DNA from: Eledone cirrhosa
Taxonomy: Eukaryota
Reading direction: 5' to 3'
Assembly: GCA_964016885.1 (NCBI GenBank)
Contig: OZ024748.1
Location: forward strand, 46,562,001-46,626,000
DNA: 64,000 nucleotides
Made by a program: the position numbers and the translations under genes. Every line of letters starts with the position of its first letter. Within the stretch, counting starts at the first letter, position 1. The notes below the pieces were generated by a model, which had not been told where the DNA came from, did not search any database, and saw only the letters and a list, made by a program, of their open reading frames with translations. Below are positions 3,488 through 63,241 of the stretch, piece by piece.

Positions 3488-3850
3488 TTGTTTCTAATTT
3501 TGGCACAAGGTCAGCAATTATCCCAGTGTATTACTGGTACATTATTCTATCGACTCCGGTCGGACGCCATGCTTTCCAGCATAGTTACGTCCCTTTACGA
3601 TCTGAGTTCAAATCCCGCCGAGGTTGACTTTGCCTTTCATCCTTACGGGGTCGATAAAATAAAGTACCAGTAATGCACTGGGTATTTGCTGGCCTTGTGC
3701 CTAACGTAGAAACAATTATTTTATCGACTCCGTAAGGATGAAAGGCAAAGTTAACCTCGGCCGGATTTGAACCTCAGATCATAAAGGGCCGAAACTCTTT
3801 GCGGTAAAGCATGGCCTTCGACTCTCTACCGATAATGCCAATCCAGCGGT
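3488..3850. mobile_element. Cluster of tRNA-derived SINE pieces (minus fragment, plus copy 3558-3720, minus copy 3716-3850)
   Basis: B-box GAGTTCAAATCC followed by GCCTTTCATCCTTACGGGGTCGATAAAATAAAGTACCAG core; about 20 related copies in the window. Confidence 0.9.
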
Positions 3851-9483: not shown

Positions 9484-10122
<639 letters not shown>

Positions 10123-18480: not shown

Positions 18481-19791
18481 ATATATATATATATACATGG
18501 AAAGTTATATTTAAATTGTTGGGTTACAACTAGTAAATATTTATAACTGATATAAAAGCACTCGACAAGTATTTGGAGTATATTTACGATATTAAATAAA
18601 TGGAAACTATATTTATAAAACCATATTTATTTCATTATATATATTTCAGGGATATCATATTAACAATATGCTATGCCTTCCTCAGACAAAATACAATATA
18701 AACAGTTTTATAGATAAATAGATTTGACATACCGTACAACATCGACTTGTATTTGAAAAGTTGAATTGGCAGTGAAAAAATTGTACACAGAGAGAAAGAA
18801 AGAGAGAAAAAGGAAAGAAAGACAGAAAACGAAGAAAAAGAAGAAAAAGAAGAAATGCATGGAACAAAATAGCGAGATGGAAAGATATATAAAGAGAAGA
18901 ACATCATGTAAAGAAACAGAGATATATATATATAGAGAGAGAGAGGAAATAGAGATAGATATATATATATATATAGAAAACTAGGTAGTGGGAGCATCCG
19001 TTGAGTAAACGTATCAATGATACATTTATTTATTTATTTATTTATTTAGCTCTAGTATTAATGTAAGGGAGATATATGTGGTTAGGAGAGAAACCAGCTG
19101 TTATATAGAGAGAAAAATTAAAAATAACCAGACATAGGCGAGGCGTAAAAACCCTATGTTTTAATGTAGAGGTATTAGTATGTATAAAAACCAGCCACTA
19201 TATTGTAAAAATCAGTATTCCTGAATGAGACATGTATCCATAATGTGTGAAAAGTAATGATCTTATGTTTAGTTTTTTAAAAAAATTCATATGTTTATGT
19301 GATAACTACAAACATCTATGTGAATTTACATGATCAACTCTGCAAACCCTAAGTTCACGGAAAACATTCTCATTGTGCTATAAAAATTTAAGTATACATA
19401 TATGTGTATATATATACACACATATATATATAGAGTCTATATTACTACTATTGTCTTTACTCTACAAGATTATCTATCAAGCAGAAATAGAGAGCAGATT
19501 TCAATATATTAATAAAAAAATATATATCAGAAACAAAACCAAAAAATAACAATAATAATAATAATAATAAATAATAATAAAATAGAAAACTAAAAAATAT
19601 TACGAAAGAATATTACATATTAAAAATATTACATATTAAAAATAAAAATATTAGAAAATACTACAATAATAAAAATAAACCACAAAGATCAACCCTTCAA
19701 AATTAATTGCCAATATATTGCCAAGTTCATTTTAAGCATCAGAGTCGAAAAACAGATAAAGCTAAAAATTATTTATCAAATCGCATCTAGC

Positions 19792-20070
19792 AAAAATTCT
19801 TTCACAGATCCAAGCAAAAAATCTTCAACGGCACTATCAGGCGTACTCTGGCAACTTAAGCTAGATAACGTTAGATATTCGACGGCTTGGAATATAGTCT
19901 CAAGAGGGATTCCTTTTAATTCATCCTCTGAGACATGTGACCTCTGCGCAGAGGAGATATTCTTTATACTAAAATCTAAAAATTCCCTTAATCTACGGAC
20001 AAATTTATTCAGTTGCTGCAAACATAGATTAAACTCAACTTTTAAATATAAATTTAAATTTAAAATGTAG
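19792..20070 (+). pseudogene. C-terminal fragment of PLE GIY-YIG endonuclease (92 aa, no start codon; absent from the ORF track)
   Basis: KNSFTDPSKKSSTALSGVLWQLKLDNVRYSTAWNIVSRGIPFNSSSETCDLCAEEIFFILKSKNSLNLRTNLFSCCKHRL...* fits the ST.LS..W.LK...W.I....CxLC..E...LN.R....CxH pattern of aquatic-invertebrate PLEs. Confidence 0.85.
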
Positions 20071-21395
20071 TATATTTAGTTTCATTTATAATTATATGGG
20101 AAACTAGCCGATAAATCTTTCAATTTCTTCTTTTTATTCTTTTTTATTTTATTTTTATTTTTATTTAAACATTCTTCATGAAAAATTAAGCTACCCTAAA
20201 AGTTGATGCTTCAAATATTTCGAATAAACGTTACACTAGATAAACTTCTATATTAAATATAAGAACACATGTAGACCAAATGGGCATCCTAAACTTTTTG
20301 AAATGATTTTTGCTAGATGCGATTTGATAAATAATTTTTAGCTTTATCTGTTTTTCGACTCTGATGCTTAAAATGAACTTGGCAATATATTGTCAATTAA
20401 TTTTGAAGGGTTGATCTTTGTGGTTTATTTTTATTATTGTAGTATTTTCTAATATTTTTATTTTTAATATGTAATATTTTTAATATGTAATATTCTTTCG
20501 TAATATTTTTTAGTTTTCTATTTTATTATTATTTATTATTATTATTATTATTGTTATTTTTTGGTTTTGTTTCTGATATATATTTTTTTATTAATATATT
20601 GAAATCTGCTCTCTATTTCTGCTTGATAGATAATCTTGTAGAGTAAAGACAATAGTAGTAATATAGACTCTATATATATGTGTGTGTATATATATACACA
20701 TATATGTATACTTAAATTTTTATAGCACAATGAGAATGTTTTCCGTGAACTTAGGGTTTGCAGAGTTGATCATGTAAATTCACATAGATGGTTGTAGTTA
20801 TCACAGAAACATATTAATTTTTTAAAAAAACTAATCATAAGATCATTACTTTTCACACATTATGGATACATGTCTCATTCAGGAATACTGATTTTTACAA
20901 TATAGTGGCTGGTTTTAATACCTCTACATTAAAACATAGGGTTTTTACGCCTCGCCTATGTCTGGTTATTTTTAATTTTTCTCTCTATATAACAGCTGGT
21001 TTCTCTCCTAACCACATATATCTCCCTTACATTAATACTAGAGCTAAATAAATAAATAAATAAATAAATGTATCATTGATACGTTTACTCAACGGATGCT
21101 CCCACTACCTAGTTTTCTATATATATATATCTATCTCTATTTCCTCTCTCTCTATATATATATCTCTCTCTGTTTCTTTACATGATGTTCTTCTCTTTAT
21201 ATATCTTTCCATCTCGCTATTTTGTTCCATGCATTTCTTCTTTTTCTTCTTTTTCTTCGTTTTCTGTCTTTCTTTCCTTTTTCTCTCTTTCTTTCTCTCT
21301 GTGTACAATTTTTTCACTGCCAATTCAACTTTTCAAATACAAGTCGATGTTGTACGGTATGTCAAATCTATTTATCTATAAAACTGTTTATATTG

Positions 21396-21461
21396 TATTT
21401 TGTCTGAGGAAGGCATAGCATATTGTTAATATGATATCCCTGAAATATATATAATGAAATA
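21396..21461 (+). ncRNA. Type I hammerhead ribozyme motif (mirror at 18628-18693 on minus strand)
   Basis: TATTTTGT-CTGAGGA-helix II-GAAA-TATATA-TA-ATGAAATA. Confidence 0.72.
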
Positions 21462-21501
21462 AATATGGTTTTATAAATATAGTTTCCATTTATTTAATAT
21501 C

Positions 21502-21574
<73 letters not shown>

Positions 21575-21576
<2 letters not shown>

Positions 21577-21781
21577 CAACAGTGACATAAACAGGTTCTC
21601 AAGTTTCGTTCGGGTTCTGGACCCCAATTTCTTCAACCTGTAATGAGAAAAATGGAAAAGGCTAAAGAAATTGGGGCCCAGAACCCAACGAAACTTGAGT
21701 ACCTGTTTATGTCACTGTTGTAATTATCTATACTAAACTCGTCCTATGGACTGAGATATTTCCACTTAACTTTTACTCCAG
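21575..21781 (+). mobile_element. Small fold-back element (arms 21575-21639 / 21659-21722) containing a decayed HHR
   Basis: Consensus of the two arms gives ACAGG-CTGAAGA-..TTGGG/CCCAA..-GAAA-CTTGAG-TA-CCTGT; flanked by TA repeats. Confidence 0.7.
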
Positions 21782-23370: not shown

Positions 23371-23639
23371 ATTATTATTGTTATTATTATTATTTTCGTA
23401 TTTCAATAATATTTTCCCTAACAATAATAATAACAAAAAGAACAACAACAACAAAAATAATAATTAAAAAAAATTAACAATAATTTTTATGTGTGAATCG
23501 TATTGCCAGTCATTCGAAAAAAGAAATGTCTTTTGTAAGTTCATTGAATGTACAAGACCAATGTTGTCTGCTCACATTAACTCGATATATTCTTTATTAT
23601 AATGGAGGTAACAACAACAACAATAACACTGAAAGCAAC

Positions 23640-26600
23640 AACGAGGCCGATTATATGAGACCGTCAACCACACTAACAACAACAGTAACAATGACACTAA
23701 ATACAACAACAAGGTCAATTATATGACAGCGTCAACCACACTAACAACAACAGCAACAATAACACTAAATACAACAACAAGGTCAATTATATGACAGCGT
23801 CAACCACACTAACAACAGCAACAATGACAATAAATACAACAACAAGGTCAATTATATGAGACCGTCATCAACCACACTAACATCAACTGCAACAATAACA
23901 CTAAATACAACAACAAGGTCAATTATATGACACCGTCAACCACACTAACAACAACAGCAACAATAACACTAAATACAACAACAAGGTCAATTATATGACA
24001 GCGTCAACCACACTAACAACAGCAGCAACAATAACACTAAATACAACAACAAGGTCAATTATATGACAGCGTCAACCACAATAACAACAGCAGCAACAAT
24101 GACAATAAATACAACAACAAGGTCAATTATATGACAGCGTCAACCACACTAACAACAACAGCAACAATGACTATAAATACAACAACAAGGTCAATTATAT
24201 GACAGCGTCAACCACACTAACAACAACAGCAACAATGACAATAAATACAACACCAAGGTCAATTATATGACAGCGTCAACCACAATAACAACAACAGCAA
24301 CAATAACACTAAATACAACAACAAGGTCAATTATATGACAGCGTCAACCACAATAACAACAACAGCAACAATGCCAATAAATACAACAACAAGGTCAATT
24401 ATATGACAGCGTCAACCACAATAACAACAACAGCAACAATAACACTAAATACAACAACAAGGTCAATTATATGACAGCGTCAACCACAATAACAACAGCA
24501 GCAACAATAACACTAAATACAACAACAAGGTCAATTATATGACAGCGTCAACCACAATAACAACAACAGCAACAATGACAATAAATACAACAACAAGGTC
24601 AATTATATGACAGCGTCAACCACAATAACAACAACAGCAACAATAACACTAAATACAACAACAAGGTCAATTATATGACAGCGTCAACCACAATAACAAC
24701 AGCAGCAACAATAACACTAAATACAACAACAAGGTCAATTATATGACAGCGTCAACCACACTAACAACAACAGCAACAATGACAATAAATACAACAACAA
24801 GGTCAATTATATGACAGCGTCAACCACAATAACAACAACAGCAACAATAACACTAAATACAACACCAAGGTCAATTATATGACAGCGTCAACCACAATAA
24901 CAACAACAGCAACAATAACACTAAATACAACAACAAGGTCAATTATATGACAGCGTCAACCACACTAACAACAACAGCAACAATGACAATAAATACAACA
25001 ACAAGGTCAATTATATGACAACGTCAACCACACTAACAACAACAGCAACAATGACACTAAATACAACAACAAGGTCAATTATATGACAGCGTCAACCACA
25101 CTAACAACAACAGCAACAATGACACTAAATACAACAACAAGGTCAATTATATGACAGCGTCAACCACAATAACAACAACAGCAACAATGACAATAAATAC
25201 AACAACAAGGTCAATTATATGACAGCGTCAACCACACTAACAACAACAGCAACAATGACACTAAATACAACAACAAGGTCAATTATATGACAGCGTCAAC
25301 CACACTAACAACAACAGCAACAATGACACTAAATACAACAACAATGTCAATTATATGACAGCGTCAACCACACTAACAACAACAGCAACAATGACAATAA
25401 ATACAACAACAAGGTCAATTATATGACACCGTCAACCACACTAACAACAGCAGCAACAATGACAATAAATACAACAACAAGGTCAATTATATGACAGCGT
25501 CAACCACACTAACATCAACAGCAACAATGACACTAAATACAACAACAAGGTCAATTATATGACAACGTCAACCACACTAACAACAACAGCAACAATGACA
25601 CTAAATACAACAACAAGGTCAATTATATGACAGCGTCAACCACACTAACATCAACTGCAACAATGACAATAAATACAACAACAAGGTCAATTATATGACA
25701 CCGTCAACCACACTAACAACAACAGCAACAATGACAATAAATACAACAACAAGGTCAATTATATGACACCGTCAACCACACTAACAACAACAGCAACAAT
25801 GACACTAAATACAACAACAAGGTCAATTATATGACAGCGTCAACCACACTAACATCAACTGCAACAATGACAATAAATACAACAACAAGGTCAATTATAT
25901 GACACCGTCAACCACACTTACAACAACAGCAACAATAACACTAAATACAACAACAAGGTCAATTATATGACACCGTCAACCACACTAACAACAACAGCAA
26001 CAATGACACTAAATACAACAACAAGGTCAATTATATGACAGCGTCAACCACACTAACATCAACTGCAACAATGACAATAAATACAACAACAAGGTCAATT
26101 ATATGACACCGTCAACCACACTAACAACAACAGCAACAATGACAATAAATACAACAACAAGGTCAATTATATGACACCGTCAACCACACTAACAACAACA
26201 GCAACAATGACACTAAATACAACAACAAGGTCAATTATATGACAGCGTCAACCACACTAACAACAACAGCAACAATGACAATATATACAACACCAAGGTC
26301 AATTATATGACAGCGTCAACCACAATAACAACAACAGCAACAATAACACTAAATACAACAACAAGGTCAATTATATGACAGCGTCAACCACACTAACAAC
26401 AGCAGCAACAATAACACTAAATACAACAACAAGTTCAATTATATGACAGCGTCAACCACAATAACAACAACAGCAACAATGACACTAAATACAACAACAA
26501 GGTCAATTATATGACAGCGTCAACCACACTAACAACAACAGCAACAATGACACTAAATACAACAACAAGGTCAATTATATGACACCGTCAACCACACTAA

Positions 26601-27560
26601 CAACAACAGCAACAATGACACTAAATACAACAACAAGGTCAATTATATGACACCGTCAACCACACTAACAACATCAGCAACAATAACACTAAATACAACA
26701 ACAAGGTCAATTATATGACAGCGTCAACCACACTAACAACATCAGCAATAATGACACTAAATACAACAACAAGGTCAATTATATGACAGCGTCAACCACA
26801 CTAACAACATCGGCAACAATAACACTAAATACAACAACAAGGTCAATTATATGACAGCGTCAACCACACTAACAACATCAGCAACAATAACACTAAATAC
26901 AACAACAAGGTCAATTATATGACAGCGTCAACCACACTAACAACAACAGCAACAATGACACTAAATACAACAACAAGGTCAATTATATGACACCGTCAAC
27001 CACACTAACAACAACAGCAACAATGACACTAAATACAACAACAAGGTCAATTATATGACACCGTCAACCACACTAACAACATCAGCAACAATGACACTAA
27101 ATACAACAACAAGGTCAATTATATGACAGCGTCAACCACACTAACAACAACAGCAACAATGACACTAAATACAACAACAAGGTCAATTATATGACACCGT
27201 CAACCACACTAACAACATCAGCAACAATAACACTAAATACAACAACAAGGTCAATTATATGACAGCGTCAACCACACTAACAACAACAGCAACAATGACA
27301 CTAAATACAACAACAAGGTCAATTATATGACAGCGTCAACCACACTAACAACAACAGCAACAATAACACTAAATACAACAACAAGGTCAATTATATGACA
27401 GCGTCAACCACACTAACAACAACAGCAACAATGACACTAAATACAACAACAAGGTCAATTATATGACAGCGTCAACCACACTAACAACAACAGCAACAAT
27501 AACACTAAATACAACAACAAGGTCAATTATATGACACCGTCAACCACACTAACAACAACA
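23640..27560. repeat. 68-bp minisatellite, about 57 units
   Basis: Unit ACAACAACAAGGTCAATTATATGACAGCGTCAACCACACTAACAACAACAGCAACAATGACACTAAAT; aaggtc at 23711 and 23779. Confidence 0.97.
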
Positions 27561-28170
27561 ACACCACCAAATCCACCACCTCCCACACCACTAACAACAA
27601 CATCAACACCACCAACAACCCCACAACATCCCACACCGACAATACCACCCCCAACCCCATCAACACCACCACCTGCCACACCAACAATACCACCCCAACC
27701 CCAACAACACCACCACCAACAAAACCACCAAAAATCCCACCCCTACCCCACCAACACCACCACCTCCCACACCAACAACAGCACCAACACCACCACCAAC
27801 CCCACCACCTCCTACACCAACAATACCACCACCAACCCCACCACCTCCTACACCACCTCCCACACCAACAGCACCACAAACACCACCACCAACCCCACCA
27901 CCTCCTACACCAACAATACCACCACCAACCCCACCACCTCCCACACCACCTCCCACACCAACAATACCACCACCAACCCCACCACCTCCCACACCAACAC
28001 CACCAACCGCACCACCTCCCACACCAACAACACCACCACCAACAACACCACCAACAATACCACCAACCCCACCATCTCCCACACTAACAACACCACCACC
28101 AACCCCACCACCTCCCACACCAACAACACCACCTCCCACACAAACAACAACCCCAACACCACCACCATCC
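27560..28170. repeat. ACC/AAC-rich degenerate repeat
   Basis: Direct reading. Confidence 0.9.
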
Positions 28171-41271: not shown

Positions 41272-41455
41272 ATATGTATATATATATATACAAAGATCGG
41301 AATTACGAGTATTCCGCAGTTCACTATAATAATAATAATAGTATTAGCTCAAAGAAGAATAGAGAATTTTCTTCTGAGCTCAAATGCAAATATATTACAC
41401 AAAGAGAAATGTGTTACACAGTGAGATGTGTGTAATGAAGTGAACAGTGTCCACA

Positions 41456-41532
41456 TTTGCTGACTGAGGATCCTGTGACCTGTTATACGGCACATATCAG
41501 TGGTGAAACGAAGCGAGATTCGTATCAGCAAA
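41456..41532 (+). ncRNA. Type I hammerhead ribozyme
   Basis: Helix I TTTGCTGA/TCAGCAAA (8/8), CTGAGGA, GAAA (41505), helix III ACGAA/TTCGT, GUA cleavage after 41524; helix II imperfect. Confidence 0.8.
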
Positions 41533-42002
41533 CTTATAGTTATAAGGTTGGTAATTTAAAACTCTAATTCAGAGATTTGATTCTGACTTAGTTTTTATCT
41601 ATTTAATTGTTAAACCTGTAGATATTGTTCTCTATACAGTAACGGTAAAACTCACGTAATAATTATTTACACACATCTCACTGTGTAACACACTTCTCTT
41701 TGTGTAATATATTTGCATTTGAGCTCAGAAGAAAATTCTCTATTCTTCTTTGAGCTAATACTATTATTATTATTACAGTAAACTGCGGAATACTCTTAAT
41801 TCCGATCTTTGTATACTTAACGAACTCCAAATTGTTGAGCTAATAAATTCGAATGGTAGGGTTGCCCTCTCTAGCATTTTCCCCAATCCATGAGAGCCGT
41901 TATTTGATGCAAATAACACGTGATTTCGCCCTACTCTGGGCAGCGTGTATATTAGCTTTCTCTCTATCCATGAGGTTAGATGTGTCGTGAACAGTGTCCA
42001 CA

Positions 42003-42079
42003 TTTGGTGACTGAGGATCCTGTGACCTGTTATACTGCACATATCAGTGGTGAAACGGAGCGAGATTCGTATCAGCAAA
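42003..42079 (+). ncRNA. Type I hammerhead ribozyme, second tandem copy
   Basis: Same motif, one mismatch in helix I. Confidence 0.72.
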
Positions 42080-42277
42080 CTTATAGTTATAAGGTTGGTA
42101 ATTTAAAACTCTAATTCAGAGATTTGATTCTGACTTAGTTTTTATCTATTTAATTGCTAAACCTGTAGATATTGATATTGTTCTCGGTAAAACTCACTTG
42201 TAATAATTCTTTACACACATCTCACTGTGTAACACACTTCTCTTTGTGTAATATATTTATATATATATATATATATA

Positions 42278-43049: not shown

Positions 43050-43519
43050 TTAAACATAAATAGAGATAGACACACAAGCATGCGCAGGAATTCATATAAA
43101 TGTTGCATACAAATATATATGTATTCGACTCGATGTACCCGTGAAGAAATCAACACACAAACACATATTCTTCATAGGAAAACAGGTTGTGAAAGAAGAG
43201 GATAATTTTTGCTATTTTGTCTAATTTGCAACTAAGTATGTTTTTGTCGGTACTCAGAGTTTCATAATAATATCCAAATAATCTCGTGTGTATCACCAAT
43301 CTTCAGTCTTTATGAAAAGGTATATCTGCTCCGGGGTCTTGATGACTTCCAGTGCAGATTTACTTTAAAAATATTTTGCCGAATTCTTTCCTTTTGGGTC
43401 TAGGGGAGGCAACATTTAGGAAAATATACTGCCATGTATTTCGAATAATATAAAATATGTCTATCTATTGTGATTACAATACAAATATCTATACAAAAAA
43501 AAACACGTACACACACACG

Positions 43520-60192: not shown

Positions 60193-62055
60193 TGAAAAAG
60201 AACACAAGAGCGTCTACAACATCAAAAGATTTTTATTGGCTAACAATGTTTCTTCCTTACGTGTAACCGTAGGATTCATCAGAGCTATAAAAGGGGTTTG
60301 ATTGGTGTTATGGACTCTACCAACCAAGCACCCAAGAACAAAGAGTAAAGAGAGTAAAGAGCAAAAGTAGGGGACGATAAGTCTAATTTTGGTGCGGGAG
60401 GGTGGGGTGTTGGTCCTTGTTTACTAGCTGCGGTCATCGGGGGTCGGGTGGTTAGCTGAACCATAGATGGGGTGGCGTGGATAGTATGGTGCAGAGGGTG
60501 CGCAGAGGCTACACAAACACAAAGGGCGTAGAATACATATACACATATAGCGGAGGAGACGGTACATGAGGTAATTAGAAATGGAAAAAGAGTAATAATA
60601 ATAATCTATAATTAATAGTGTATAATAAGGCATGGGGAAGATTACACTATAATAAGGTATAAAGGTAAGAATAAGGTAAAATATAAAGGAGGATAAAAGT
60701 GGAAATAATAATAAAGATAAAAAATATATAGAGAATATATAAGGAAATATAAGCGAATATTTGGAGGGGAAAACACAATGTAAAAAAAACGATTTTTTTC
60801 AAACAATAATAAAAAATAATAAAAATATAATAATTATGGGGGGAGAAAACAGGATAGAGAAATATGATCAAGTGTGATTCGTTGAGAGAATATAGGATGA
60901 TAACAGTTGTGTCCGGTTTATACATCTTAATAATAAATAATAAACAATATGTGTATCAGAGTTGCAGAACGTTCAATTCACTTACGGGTTCAAGCCACGT
61001 GGCATGGTCCATTGTTTATCTGTGCGGTCATGTGCGTTTGTTTTTGACACCACAGCAGATGCACAAGTTTGTAAATTCCAATGCAGATAGAAGTCAATTT
61101 TTGCTCACCCGGACATTGACCGAGGATCCAATATTCCTAGTTCAATATGTGTTTGGTGTTATTTTGTTCGCACAAATCAATTTGTGCGAACAAAATAACA
61201 CCAAACACAAACGCACATGACCGCACAGATAAACAATGGACCATGCCACGTGGCTTGAACCCGTAAGTGAATTGAAGGTTCTGCAACTCTGATACACATA
61301 TTGTTTATTATTTATTATTAAGATGTATAAACCGGACACAACTGTTATCATCCTATATTCTCTCAACGAATCACACTTGATCATATTTCTCTATCCTGTT
61401 TTCTCCCCCCATAATTATTATATTTTTATTATTTTTTATTATTGTTTGAAAAAAATCGTTTTTTTTACATTGTGTTTTCCCCTCCAAATATTCGCTTATA
61501 TTTCCTTATATATTCTCTATATATTTTTTATCTTTATTATTATTTCCACTTTTATCCTCCTTTATATTTTACCTTATTCTTACCTTTATACCTTATTATA
61601 GTGTAATCTTCCCCATGCCCTATTATACACTATTAATTATAGATTATTATTATTACTCTTTTTCCATTTCTAATTACCTCATGTACCTTCTCCTCCGCTA
61701 TATGTGTATATGTATTCTACGCCCTTTGTGTTTGTGTAGCCTCTGCGCACCCTCTGCACCATACTATCTACGCCACCCCATCTATGGTTCAGCTAACCAC
61801 CCGACCCCCGATGACCGCAGCTAGTAAACAAGGACCAACACCCCACCCTCCCGCACCAAAATTAGACTTATCGTCCCCTACTTTTGCTCTTTACTCTCTT
61901 TACTCTTTGTTCTTGGGTGTTTGGTTGGTAGAGTCCAAAACACCAATCAAACCCCTTTTATAGCTCTGATGAATCCTACGGTTACACGTAAGGAAGAAAC
62001 ATTGTTAGCCAATAAAAATCTTTTGATGTTGTAGACGCTCTTGTGTTCTTTTTCA
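60193..62055. mobile_element. Large fold-back element with ~854-bp near-identical arms (60193-61046 / 61202-62055) and terminal HHR motifs; probably PLE-derived
   Basis: Mirror ORFs in the track on both strands; TA flanks; nested 30-bp hairpin 61148-61209. Confidence 0.85.
61956..62017 (+). ncRNA. Minimal type I hammerhead motif (mirror at 60231-60292 on minus strand)
   Basis: GCT-CTGATGA-A-TCCTACG/CGT(A)AGGA-A-GAAA-CATTG-TT-AGC, followed by AATAAA. Confidence 0.62.
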
Positions 62056-62754: not shown

Positions 62755-62789
<35 letters not shown>

Positions 62790-62798
62790 ATAATATTA

Positions 62799-62985
62799 AT
62801 TGTTTCTACTTTAGGCACAAGGCCAGCAATTACCCAGTGCATTACTGGTACTTTATTTTATCGACCCCGTAAGGATGAAAGGCAAAGTCAACCTCGGCGG
62901 GATTTGAACTCAGATCGTAAAGGGACGTAACTATGCTGGAAAGCATGGCGTCAAACCCTCTACCGATACTGCCAATCCACCACCC
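62799..62985 (-). mobile_element. tRNA-derived SINE, near full length
   Basis: Reverse complement of the SINE with A and B boxes. Confidence 0.92.
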
Positions 62986-63039
62986 TCTGGAAAAGGGAAA
63001 CTATATTTATAAAACCATATTTATTCTATTATATATATT

Positions 63040-63100
63040 TATTCTATTATATATATTTCAAGGGTACCAACACTTTGGTACGCCCTCATCAGATAAAATA
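63040..63100 (-). ncRNA. Type I hammerhead ribozyme in a diverged relative of the 18587 family (fragment 62997-63188)
   Basis: Minus strand: TATTTTAT-CTGATGA-GGGCGTACCAA/TTGGTACCCTT-GAAA-TATATA-TA-ATAGAATA. Confidence 0.8.
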
Positions 63101-63185
63101 CAAAATTTGTTTTATAAGTATAGTGACATACCCAGGAATCATACCTTAACAGTTCAGGTTCCGTTTGGATTAAATATCACTTTGG

Positions 63186-63241
<56 letters not shown>

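Follow-up and report, generated by a model that had tools for sequence, protein, structure and literature searches.

The window analysed here is a stretch of 64,000 nt from Eledone cirrhosa. A search near its end confirmed a hammerhead ribozyme motif at 63100–63040 on the minus strand, a strand that the initial annotation had not given (Table 1). The type I core (C3 U4 G5 A6 N7 G8 A9, G12 A13 A14, A15.1–U16.1 and H17) is complete in this copy, hereafter the 63k copy, and in four others (5/5). The pattern CTGANGA-N10–40-GAAATATA returned 5 matches in the window (9735–9779, 18640–18685 and 63052–63092 on the minus strand; 9945–9990 and 21404–21449 on the plus strand), compared with 0 in 100 shuffles, and two of the five copies are additional to those named before. 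The core is surrounded by an open helix I and by helices II and III. For the 63k copy these are a helix I of 8 bp, a helix II paired at 10 of 11 positions, and a helix III predicted to pair over 2 bp as a monomer and over 8 bp either as a dimer or by way of an 18-nt duplication. Judged by its sequence, the motif at 63040–63100 is a real type I hammerhead.

Table 1. Features of the hammerhead family and its host element in the window.
Feature	Position	Strand	Basis or remark
Type I hammerhead motif	63040..63100	-	Hammerhead pattern; model from 45 relatives: 16.8 bits, E 0.019
Helix I 5' strand, 63k copy	63100-63093	-	
Core CUGAUGA, 63k copy	63092-63086	-	
Helix II, 63k copy	63085-63060	-	11 positions, one C-C mismatch
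G12-A14 (GAA), 63k copy	63059-63057	-	
Helix III palindrome AUAUAUAU, 63k copy	63056-63049	-	
A17, 63k copy	63048	-	Cut predicted after A17
Helix I 3' strand, 63k copy	63047-63040	-	
18-nt tandem duplication (63055-63038 and 63037-63020)	63020..63055	-	Helix III repeat and helix I 3' strand; 63k copy only in the window
Downstream 27-nt stretch	62996..63022	-	Identical in 5/5 copies; 5 exact matches, 0 in shuffles
5'-truncated upstream part, 63k copy	63101..63187	-	Begins beside (TA)n tract ~63188-63240; 72% identical to 21k copy over 150 columns
Interspersed repeat, ~185 bp	62797..62980	+	Many window copies; abuts broken 3' end of 63k copy; (TA)n beyond at ~62765-62787
C-terminal remnant of Hydra-clade PLE GIY-YIG endonuclease (CxxC-E-LN-R-CxH)	19786..20070	+	Start of 5'-truncated sense copy; profile search, alignment
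Sister hammerhead, other subfamily	21396..21461	+	Core ~1330 nt past stop codon; predicted cut after 21453; insertion ends 21502 into (TA)n
Inverted 5'-truncated arm	18496..19804	-	18579-19804 97.8% identical to 20299-21510; hammerhead 18693-18628; ~90-nt tail past first end, to (TA)n
Tail hairpin ACTC-N12-GAGT	18560..18579	-	+56 from cut site; homologous to GCTC-N9-19-GAGC of Hydra relatives
Inverted pair of short 5'-truncated copies	9682..10045	.	Hammerhead in each; (TA)n both sides

The copies form two subfamilies: four are 93–99% alike, and the 63k copy is 72% identical to them over 150 columns. As annotated initially, helix I has changed with its pairing kept (TATTTTAT/ATAGAATA in the 63k copy, TATTTTGT/ATGAAATA in the copies at 9937 and 21396; 8/8 pairs in each), the variable core base differs (CTGATGA versus CTGAGGA in the same two copies), and GAAATATATATA is retained. 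The accompanying claim that the whole helix II sequence had changed did not survive alignment in register, where 12 of 18 core-proximal positions agree, among them a C–C mismatch at pair 4 common to both; alternative registers gave fewer pairs.

That such a core was assembled by chance beside a TA microsatellite in an AT-rich genome deserves practically no credence. In its favour are the abundance of (TA)n in the window, a hammerhead that is not the MFE fold, and 120 stretches of viral contigs that a loose form of the pattern matches. None of these 120 can form helices I and II, which marks them as chance matches, whereas all five window copies form both; about 0.04 co-occurrences are expected in the window, the motif sits where it does in relatives, and the tail is homologous. 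On these viral-match, co-occurrence, position and tail controls chance assembly was rejected. A family-specific DNA pattern had 0 matches in metagenome contigs.

The copies at 18640 and 21404 form the two arms of one inverted structure. The frame between the arms, ending at 20070 (STALSGVLWQLK...CDLCAEE...LNLRTNLFSCCKH), carries the residues CDLC-AEE...LN-R...CKH at 19786–20067, of which C51, C54, E57, C78 and H80 are invariant in a 30-sequence alignment. A profile search with this remnant returned 1593 relatives at E≤0.001; the longest (P0086; 34%, E 4e-10) has RWR and DKT motifs, and P0096 has a CxCX5C linker. The profile search succeeded where a word-indexed protein search for longer relatives passed 0 of 127 candidates, and Pfam gave no significant match for the remnant or for six longer relatives. 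Motifs such as those of the remnant and of its longest relative, hammerheads and (TA)n insertion are the features by which the Hydra clade of PLEs is described (PMC8557442). Further Hydra traits (RWK and DKT motifs, the CxCX5C linker, lack of CCHH, and RT phylogeny) concern parts missing from the truncated window copy, and since no RT remnant was seen in the window, clade membership rests on the endonuclease end and the non-coding features. By these, the element appears to have the Hydra features testable in the window. The initial annotation had assigned the ribozyme to a PLE, and the Hydra-clade endonuclease remnant and the homologous tail now show that link.

The hammerhead is in sense to the ORF and near the 3' end of the element (core at 21404, ORF end at 20070, both on the plus strand; element end at 21502). 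The 21k copy stops in (TA)n, 49 nt past the predicted cut; the 18k arm continues ~90 nt further, reaching (TA)n at about +140, and this tail is present on one arm only. Copies that are inverted and 5'-truncated, and a tail at one end, are general PLE features (PMC8557442). The gap from stop codon to ribozyme (20070–21404) is A-rich and microsatellite-laden and measures ~1.3 kb, versus 76–379 nt from protein match to hammerhead in 54 relatives. Four of the five copies end in (TA)n, one of them after the tail; the 3' end of the 63k copy is interrupted by another repeat. This copy begins beside (TA)n and has lost its last ~15 nt where the ~185-bp repeat abuts; it has no attached ORF of its own and is linked to the element by homology to the 21k copy. 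The ~185-bp repeat, which we presume from its look to be octopus SINE-like, has further copies near 3560, 10520, 11035, 17280, 38410, 46420 and 47060. A short element with long terminal inverted repeats (21580–21760), MITE-like by eye, directly follows the (TA)n that ends the 21k insertion, and self-comparison revealed a long tandem array of 68-bp period at ~23610–27570.

We compared 62984–63187 with four sequencing runs at 80% likeness, obtaining 4524 contigs from X1, 38 from X5, 2 from X6 and 24421 reads from X14. The X14 reads are RAD-seq reads, most of which, as placed, cover only the common downstream stretch, with a depth of 650–1370 at 63044–63107. The start of the 18k tail coincides with the loose end of 16535 X14 reads, and loose ends in TA also occur in X1 and X5 contigs.

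Such short copies could instead belong to a non-autonomous retrozyme copied as tandem or circular RNA, a reading that we find very improbable. Three of the five copies lie in units of <250 nt without an ORF, and retrozymes, which originate from PLE repeats, have hammerheads of type I; they also require tandem units (both bioRxiv 10.64898/2026.07.22.740005). The window contains no head-to-tail array of the family: its copies stand singly or as inverted pairs, truncated to differing extents at the 5' end, and one of them runs on without a break from the endonuclease remnant.

To place the family among its relatives, an alignment of 10 proteins, drawn from at least 150 relatives, was used to obtain the best 80 of 487 metagenome loci. 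A descriptor search revealed a hammerhead 76–379 nt past the protein match in 54 of these 80 Hydra loci (26 of the 80 had <250 nt downstream); as controls, 1080 shuffles and the 54 antisense strands gave 0 each. All 54 ribozymes (45 distinct) have C15.2–G16.2 and a GUH triplet (GUA, 39; GUC, 11; GUU, 4). Their helix III strands are mostly near-palindromes of 8–10 nt, and a (UA)n helix III occurs in 0 of the 54. Among the 46 fetched loci with enough sequence, 21 have (TA)4 or more within 160 nt, in clusters at +30–56 and +106–125. The published record agrees: the 25 Hydra families (26 rows) in File S2 of Craig et al. 2021 all read AC...GU, with a (UA)n helix III in 0 of the 25, and File S1 gives a (TA)n target for 24 of 25 families (PMC8557442).

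The relatives also share a hairpin in the tail, a feature that the initial annotation had not noted. In 24 of the 38 relatives with at least 110 nt of tail (e.g. L131, L135, L139, L141), GCTC-N9–19-GAGC(AC) lies +36 to +61 past the cut (shuffle mean 0.87, maximum 4); among the 14 without it, 8 end in TA within 80 nt. In 7 of 17 loci examined, the same hairpin recurs ~1120 nt ahead of the protein match, a position close to the unit's 5' start. In the 18k tail its outer pair differs from that of the relatives by a two-sided change, and first insertion ends fall just upstream of it. The hairpin is a candidate RT-binding or promoter element; the words "hairpin" and "stem-loop" do not occur in the main text of PMC8557442, nor was the 16-nt tail core found in its supplement.

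We then compared the two window subfamilies over 17 helix positions (8 in helix I, 9 in helix II), 15 of which are standard pairs in the 21k copy. Nine substitutions separate the subfamilies at these positions and no pair is broken. Five pairs are kept through one-sided G·U/A–U changes, the type to which all three helix I changes belong; one pair is kept by a two-sided change (A–U to G–C), and one mismatch becomes a pair. In simulation, random substitution breaks no pair with a chance of 0.00017, 0.0012 or 0.018 at transition fractions of 0.33, 0.6 and 0.9, for a statistic that compares two lineages only and takes its helix limits from the same sequences. The comparison supports the fold, but for these reasons is not formal covariation. 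The initial annotation had read the changes as covariation; with only one two-sided change that term is too strong, and what stands is pair retention between two lineages. The 45 distinct relatives, aligned without the window copies, covary in 11 of 13 pairs, partly by construction since they were chosen with a pairing descriptor.

Variants in the X14 reads, as listed changes only, unphased, including PCR copies and from loci near restriction sites only, follow a similar pattern. Listed changes in helices I and III preserve pairing (G1.4>A, 422/653 at 63044; A>G in the helix III loop, 81/751 at 63052), as do the commonest ones at the base of helix II (G10.2>A, 1215/1361; G10.1>A, 617/1368). 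Loop 2 varies freely (312/761 at 63071, 197/769 at 63073, with many insertions), and so does the flank (432/949 at 63105). In the core, the changes listed are G8>A (70/1367) and G12>C (39/818, three starts). Where no compensating change exists, pairs may be broken by U10.6>C (321/1358), by G10.1>U (209/1368) and by three changes at A11.6. The commonest helix II version of the other subfamily, behind the loose end of 20905 X14 reads at 63040, seems to have a pairing G at 11.8; the 9.9k and 21k copies have a mismatching A there and may be slightly decayed.

Rfam gave no hammerhead family match for 62990–63185 at E up to 10, although such a match is a convenience and no defining trait of the ribozyme class, and a broader Rfam search gave, among the best 150 of 499 matches, only microsatellite-driven matches of miRNA type. 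A custom Hydra model built from the 45 relatives, with no window copy included, scored the 63k copy as given in Table 1 and the other four at E 0.3–0.5. The hammerhead is never the predicted MFE fold in any copy, and in a 71-nt copy neither the MFE nor the centroid fold is a hammerhead; relative to the ensemble, fold A lies 10.7–15.8 kcal/mol higher and fold B, in the register of the duplication, 6.3–9.3 kcal/mol higher. The AUAUAUAU duplex is worth –3.2 kcal/mol, and 26 of 28 distinct helices of relatives are stronger; as this duplex is among the weakest in the set, low activity is expected. We also considered the 27-nt stretch as a designed switch pairing back on the core. A hairpin is indeed predicted, at z = –1.1 (30 of 200 shuffles were as good), and the mean z over 38 relatives is 0.27; the switch was therefore dropped and the hairpin retained merely as a competing fold.

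The custom Hydra model also finds three further hammerhead families in the window, all with a C–G helix III and two of them TA-flanked. One (41455–41533 and 42002–42080, both plus) lies in a unit at ~41291–42258, tandem plus inverted with (TA)n on both sides. Its helix I has 8 bp, its helix III is stable with 5 bp, and its triplet is GUA; it is predicted to be of monomer type. Another hammerhead-like motif forms an inverted pair (60233–60291, minus; 61957–62015, plus) with GUU and a short helix I, within an inverted structure at 60194–62054 whose arms are ~99% identical and end at TA; a search inside it returned no Hydra-type protein match. At 43242–43312 (minus) a Hydra-type core and helix III (ACUCUGAGU-A) stand beside a decayed helix I.

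A rival reading is an inherited hammerhead of negligible catalysis, its fold kept as a protein-binding or structural part or slowly decaying, with no cleavage in vivo. Its helices are weak and all-AU, helix II has the C–C mismatch, and A–U or G·U replaces G–C at 10.1–11.1; the tail offers the competing hairpin. AUA was the slowest of four triplets tested after purification, yet the second of four during transcription (PMC1636495). Elsewhere among PLEs, cleavage is dispensable and reads ending at the site are reported absent for the Anolis element (PMC11167929), and Naiads thrive without canonical hammerheads (PMC8557442). Against this stand the nearly invariant core bases amid a variable loop 2 and flanks, the pairs kept across subfamilies only 72% identical, and a U–U at the base of helix II in 23 of the 45 relatives. 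We consider negligible catalysis unlikely and the hammerhead probably functional.

The 18-nt duplication, which the initial annotation had not mentioned, bears on how helix III might form. Its second unit can close an 8-bp helix III in cis, moving the predicted cut to after 63030, with predicted energies of –13.1 kcal/mol for fold B versus –6.6 kcal/mol for fold A. In a transcript ending at the duplication the MFE fold already has helices I and III in the shifted register; when the downstream 27 nt are included, the competing hairpin is predicted to win. A total of 68 X14 reads (~19 starts) skip the 18 nt, as does the single X6 contig that spans the duplication, and several X1 contigs lose their match at its start. 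We had considered the duplication as a subfamily marker and rejected this on those 68 reads and one contig, because of which slippage in the 63k copy is its likely origin. By the same comparison the duplication is likely private to the 63k copy.

The main departure of the family is the combination of the AUAUAUAU helix III with AUA, which differs from all 54 fetched and, in the published supplement, all 25 Hydra ribozymes (C–G, GUH). The initial annotation had described a conserved functional ribozyme whose dimerisation helix mimics the (TA)n target. The conserved hammerhead of type I stands, with its palindromic helix III and AUA; the mimicry is not supported. Mimicry would mean that the cut leaves an RNA whose 3' (UA)4 pairs with nicked (TA)n DNA to prime reverse transcription, or that helix III otherwise guides TA targeting. 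In its favour, a perfect (UA)4 would close the 5' product, insertions have (TA)n at their ends, target-complementary repeats beside a hammerhead serve telomeric PLEs (PMC6431247), and both subfamilies retain the switch from C–G to U–A, which none of the 54 relatives has. However, all five copies continue beyond the cut site, and of the 8 GAAATATATATA sites the remaining 3 lack an upstream core. X14 depth is 751 at 63052 and still 653 at 63044, on the far side of the site, with none at the site among the loose ends listed. A (UA)n helix III is absent from the fetched and published Hydra ribozymes, yet (TA)4 or more is common at their loci and nearly all published families target TA (PMC8557442); the three other window families have a C–G helix III, two of them in TA flanks. 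The Terminon repeats lie downstream of the ribozyme, outside helix III (PMC6431247), and the sole reconstituted PLE initiates internally, without homology to the target (PMC11167929). Mimicry is thus very unlikely.

A related reading would add to the usual downstream initiation another way of priming that depends on the ribozyme, the (UA)4 palindrome having replaced the C–G helix III so that the cut 3' end anneals to nicked (TA)n. This would make the family the microsatellite equivalent of the telomere-annealing Terminons and give PLE hammerheads a concrete function; it strikes us as equally doubtful. Every copy continues for at least 49 nt after the cut site; the template must therefore run past the cut, and (UA)4 is not at the priming end. 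A target-annealing end of the Terminon/Athena type was looked for; instead the endonuclease remnant is present and insertions end at least 49 nt past (UA)4. A literature search for a target-mimicking helix III or a later Hydra-clade study returned nothing beyond Craig et al. 2021. Regional G+C is low (0.25–0.31), and on this basis the all-A/U helix III is likely the outcome of compositional drift within a palindrome constraint in an AT-rich genome.

We therefore favour, as probable, a hammerhead in the 3' repeat of a Hydra-clade PLE that cleaves itself weakly after AUA when two copies pair through AUAUAUAU, with an all-A/U helix III acquired by drift. The ribozyme would trim tandem transcripts, either as a dimer or helped by the protein of the element. 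Reverse transcription would start downstream of the ribozyme on RNA uncut there, as PMC11167929 suggests, or re-ligated, and TA targeting would come from the endonuclease and its linker rather than from helix III. The 63k copy is an insertion that has been truncated, and its own duplication is predicted to provide helix III in cis. Dimer-dependent weak cleavage is likely by analogy with the literature: PLE hammerheads act as dimers with low activity (PMC4209133), which a review supports (PMC6765202). They are also described with protein help, cleavage being unnecessary for insertion in vitro (PMC11167929), and natural AUA hammerheads do cleave, AUA being slower than GUC but active (PMC1636495).

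The closest known system is the Hydra clade, including Hydra-1_Obim (PMC8557442). Its members, like the window element, have a C-terminal GIY-YIG end whose E and N lie between CxxC and CxH, a hammerhead ~100 nt from the 3' end with a near-palindromic helix III of 8–10 nt, (TA)n insertion, inverted 5'-truncated copies and a tail. The window copies have U15.2–A16.2 and AUA, whereas the 25 Hydra families have C–G and GUH (in Hydra-1_Obim, ACCA-A-UGGU and GUU; PMC8557442); the window element also has a longer helix II with the C–C mismatch and a longer interval between stop codon and ribozyme.

Precedents for the departure lie in a different PLE clade. Penelope of Drosophila virilis has a similar palindromic (AU)n helix III, AUAUAU there and in four other Drosophila rows, and AUA occurs in at least 2 of 56 rows of Fig. 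S3 in its machine-extracted text (Schmidtea, D. willistoni); minimal PLE hammerheads share the dimer dependence predicted here (Cervera and De la Pena 2014, PMC4209133). These have (AU)2–3 and a helix I of 2–5 bp, as against (AU)4 and 8 bp in the window, and the window copies lack, in the register used, the extra unpaired base before helix II (PMC4209133). Hammerheads in ELVd(+), sCYDV-RPV(+) as well as csc RNA(–) combine the same U15.2–A16.2 with AUA and are active; unlike the window copies, they have a stable monomeric helix III (5–6 bp) and serve viroid or satellite replication (PMC1636495). Poseidon of Anolis carolinensis likewise has two insertion ends downstream of the ribozyme, bounding an optional tail (Frangieh et al. 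2024, PMC11167929). It differs in its minimal hammerhead overlapping the start codon, its ATT target and its tail of 30–40 nt (PMC11167929), compared with ~90 nt and a conserved hairpin in the window element, which is known from sequence alone. Terminon/Athena elements set a precedent for target-complementary RNA beside a hammerhead; they are without an endonuclease and carry reverse-complement telomeric repeats downstream of the ribozyme, at the element end (PMC6431247), whereas in the window element the repeat is inside helix III and the element end at least 49 nt further on. The locus thus has a hammerhead of known type in an element of known type, with one departure from its clade that has a precedent in other Penelope ribozymes.

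In its main outline the result is ordinary, because PLE hammerheads, palindromic helix III, dimer cleavage and the Hydra preference for TA are all published. The role of the hammerhead in the PLE life cycle is stated to be unclear (PMC8557442). Target mimicry, if true, would give PLE hammerheads a direct role in integration, and the evidence points away from it. What the family offers is a natural all-AU, AUA variant of a helix otherwise invariant in the Hydra clade, and, in the 18-nt duplication, a natural sequence on which monomer and dimer cleavage can be compared. The conserved tail hairpin, just past the first insertion end, is a candidate place for RT binding.
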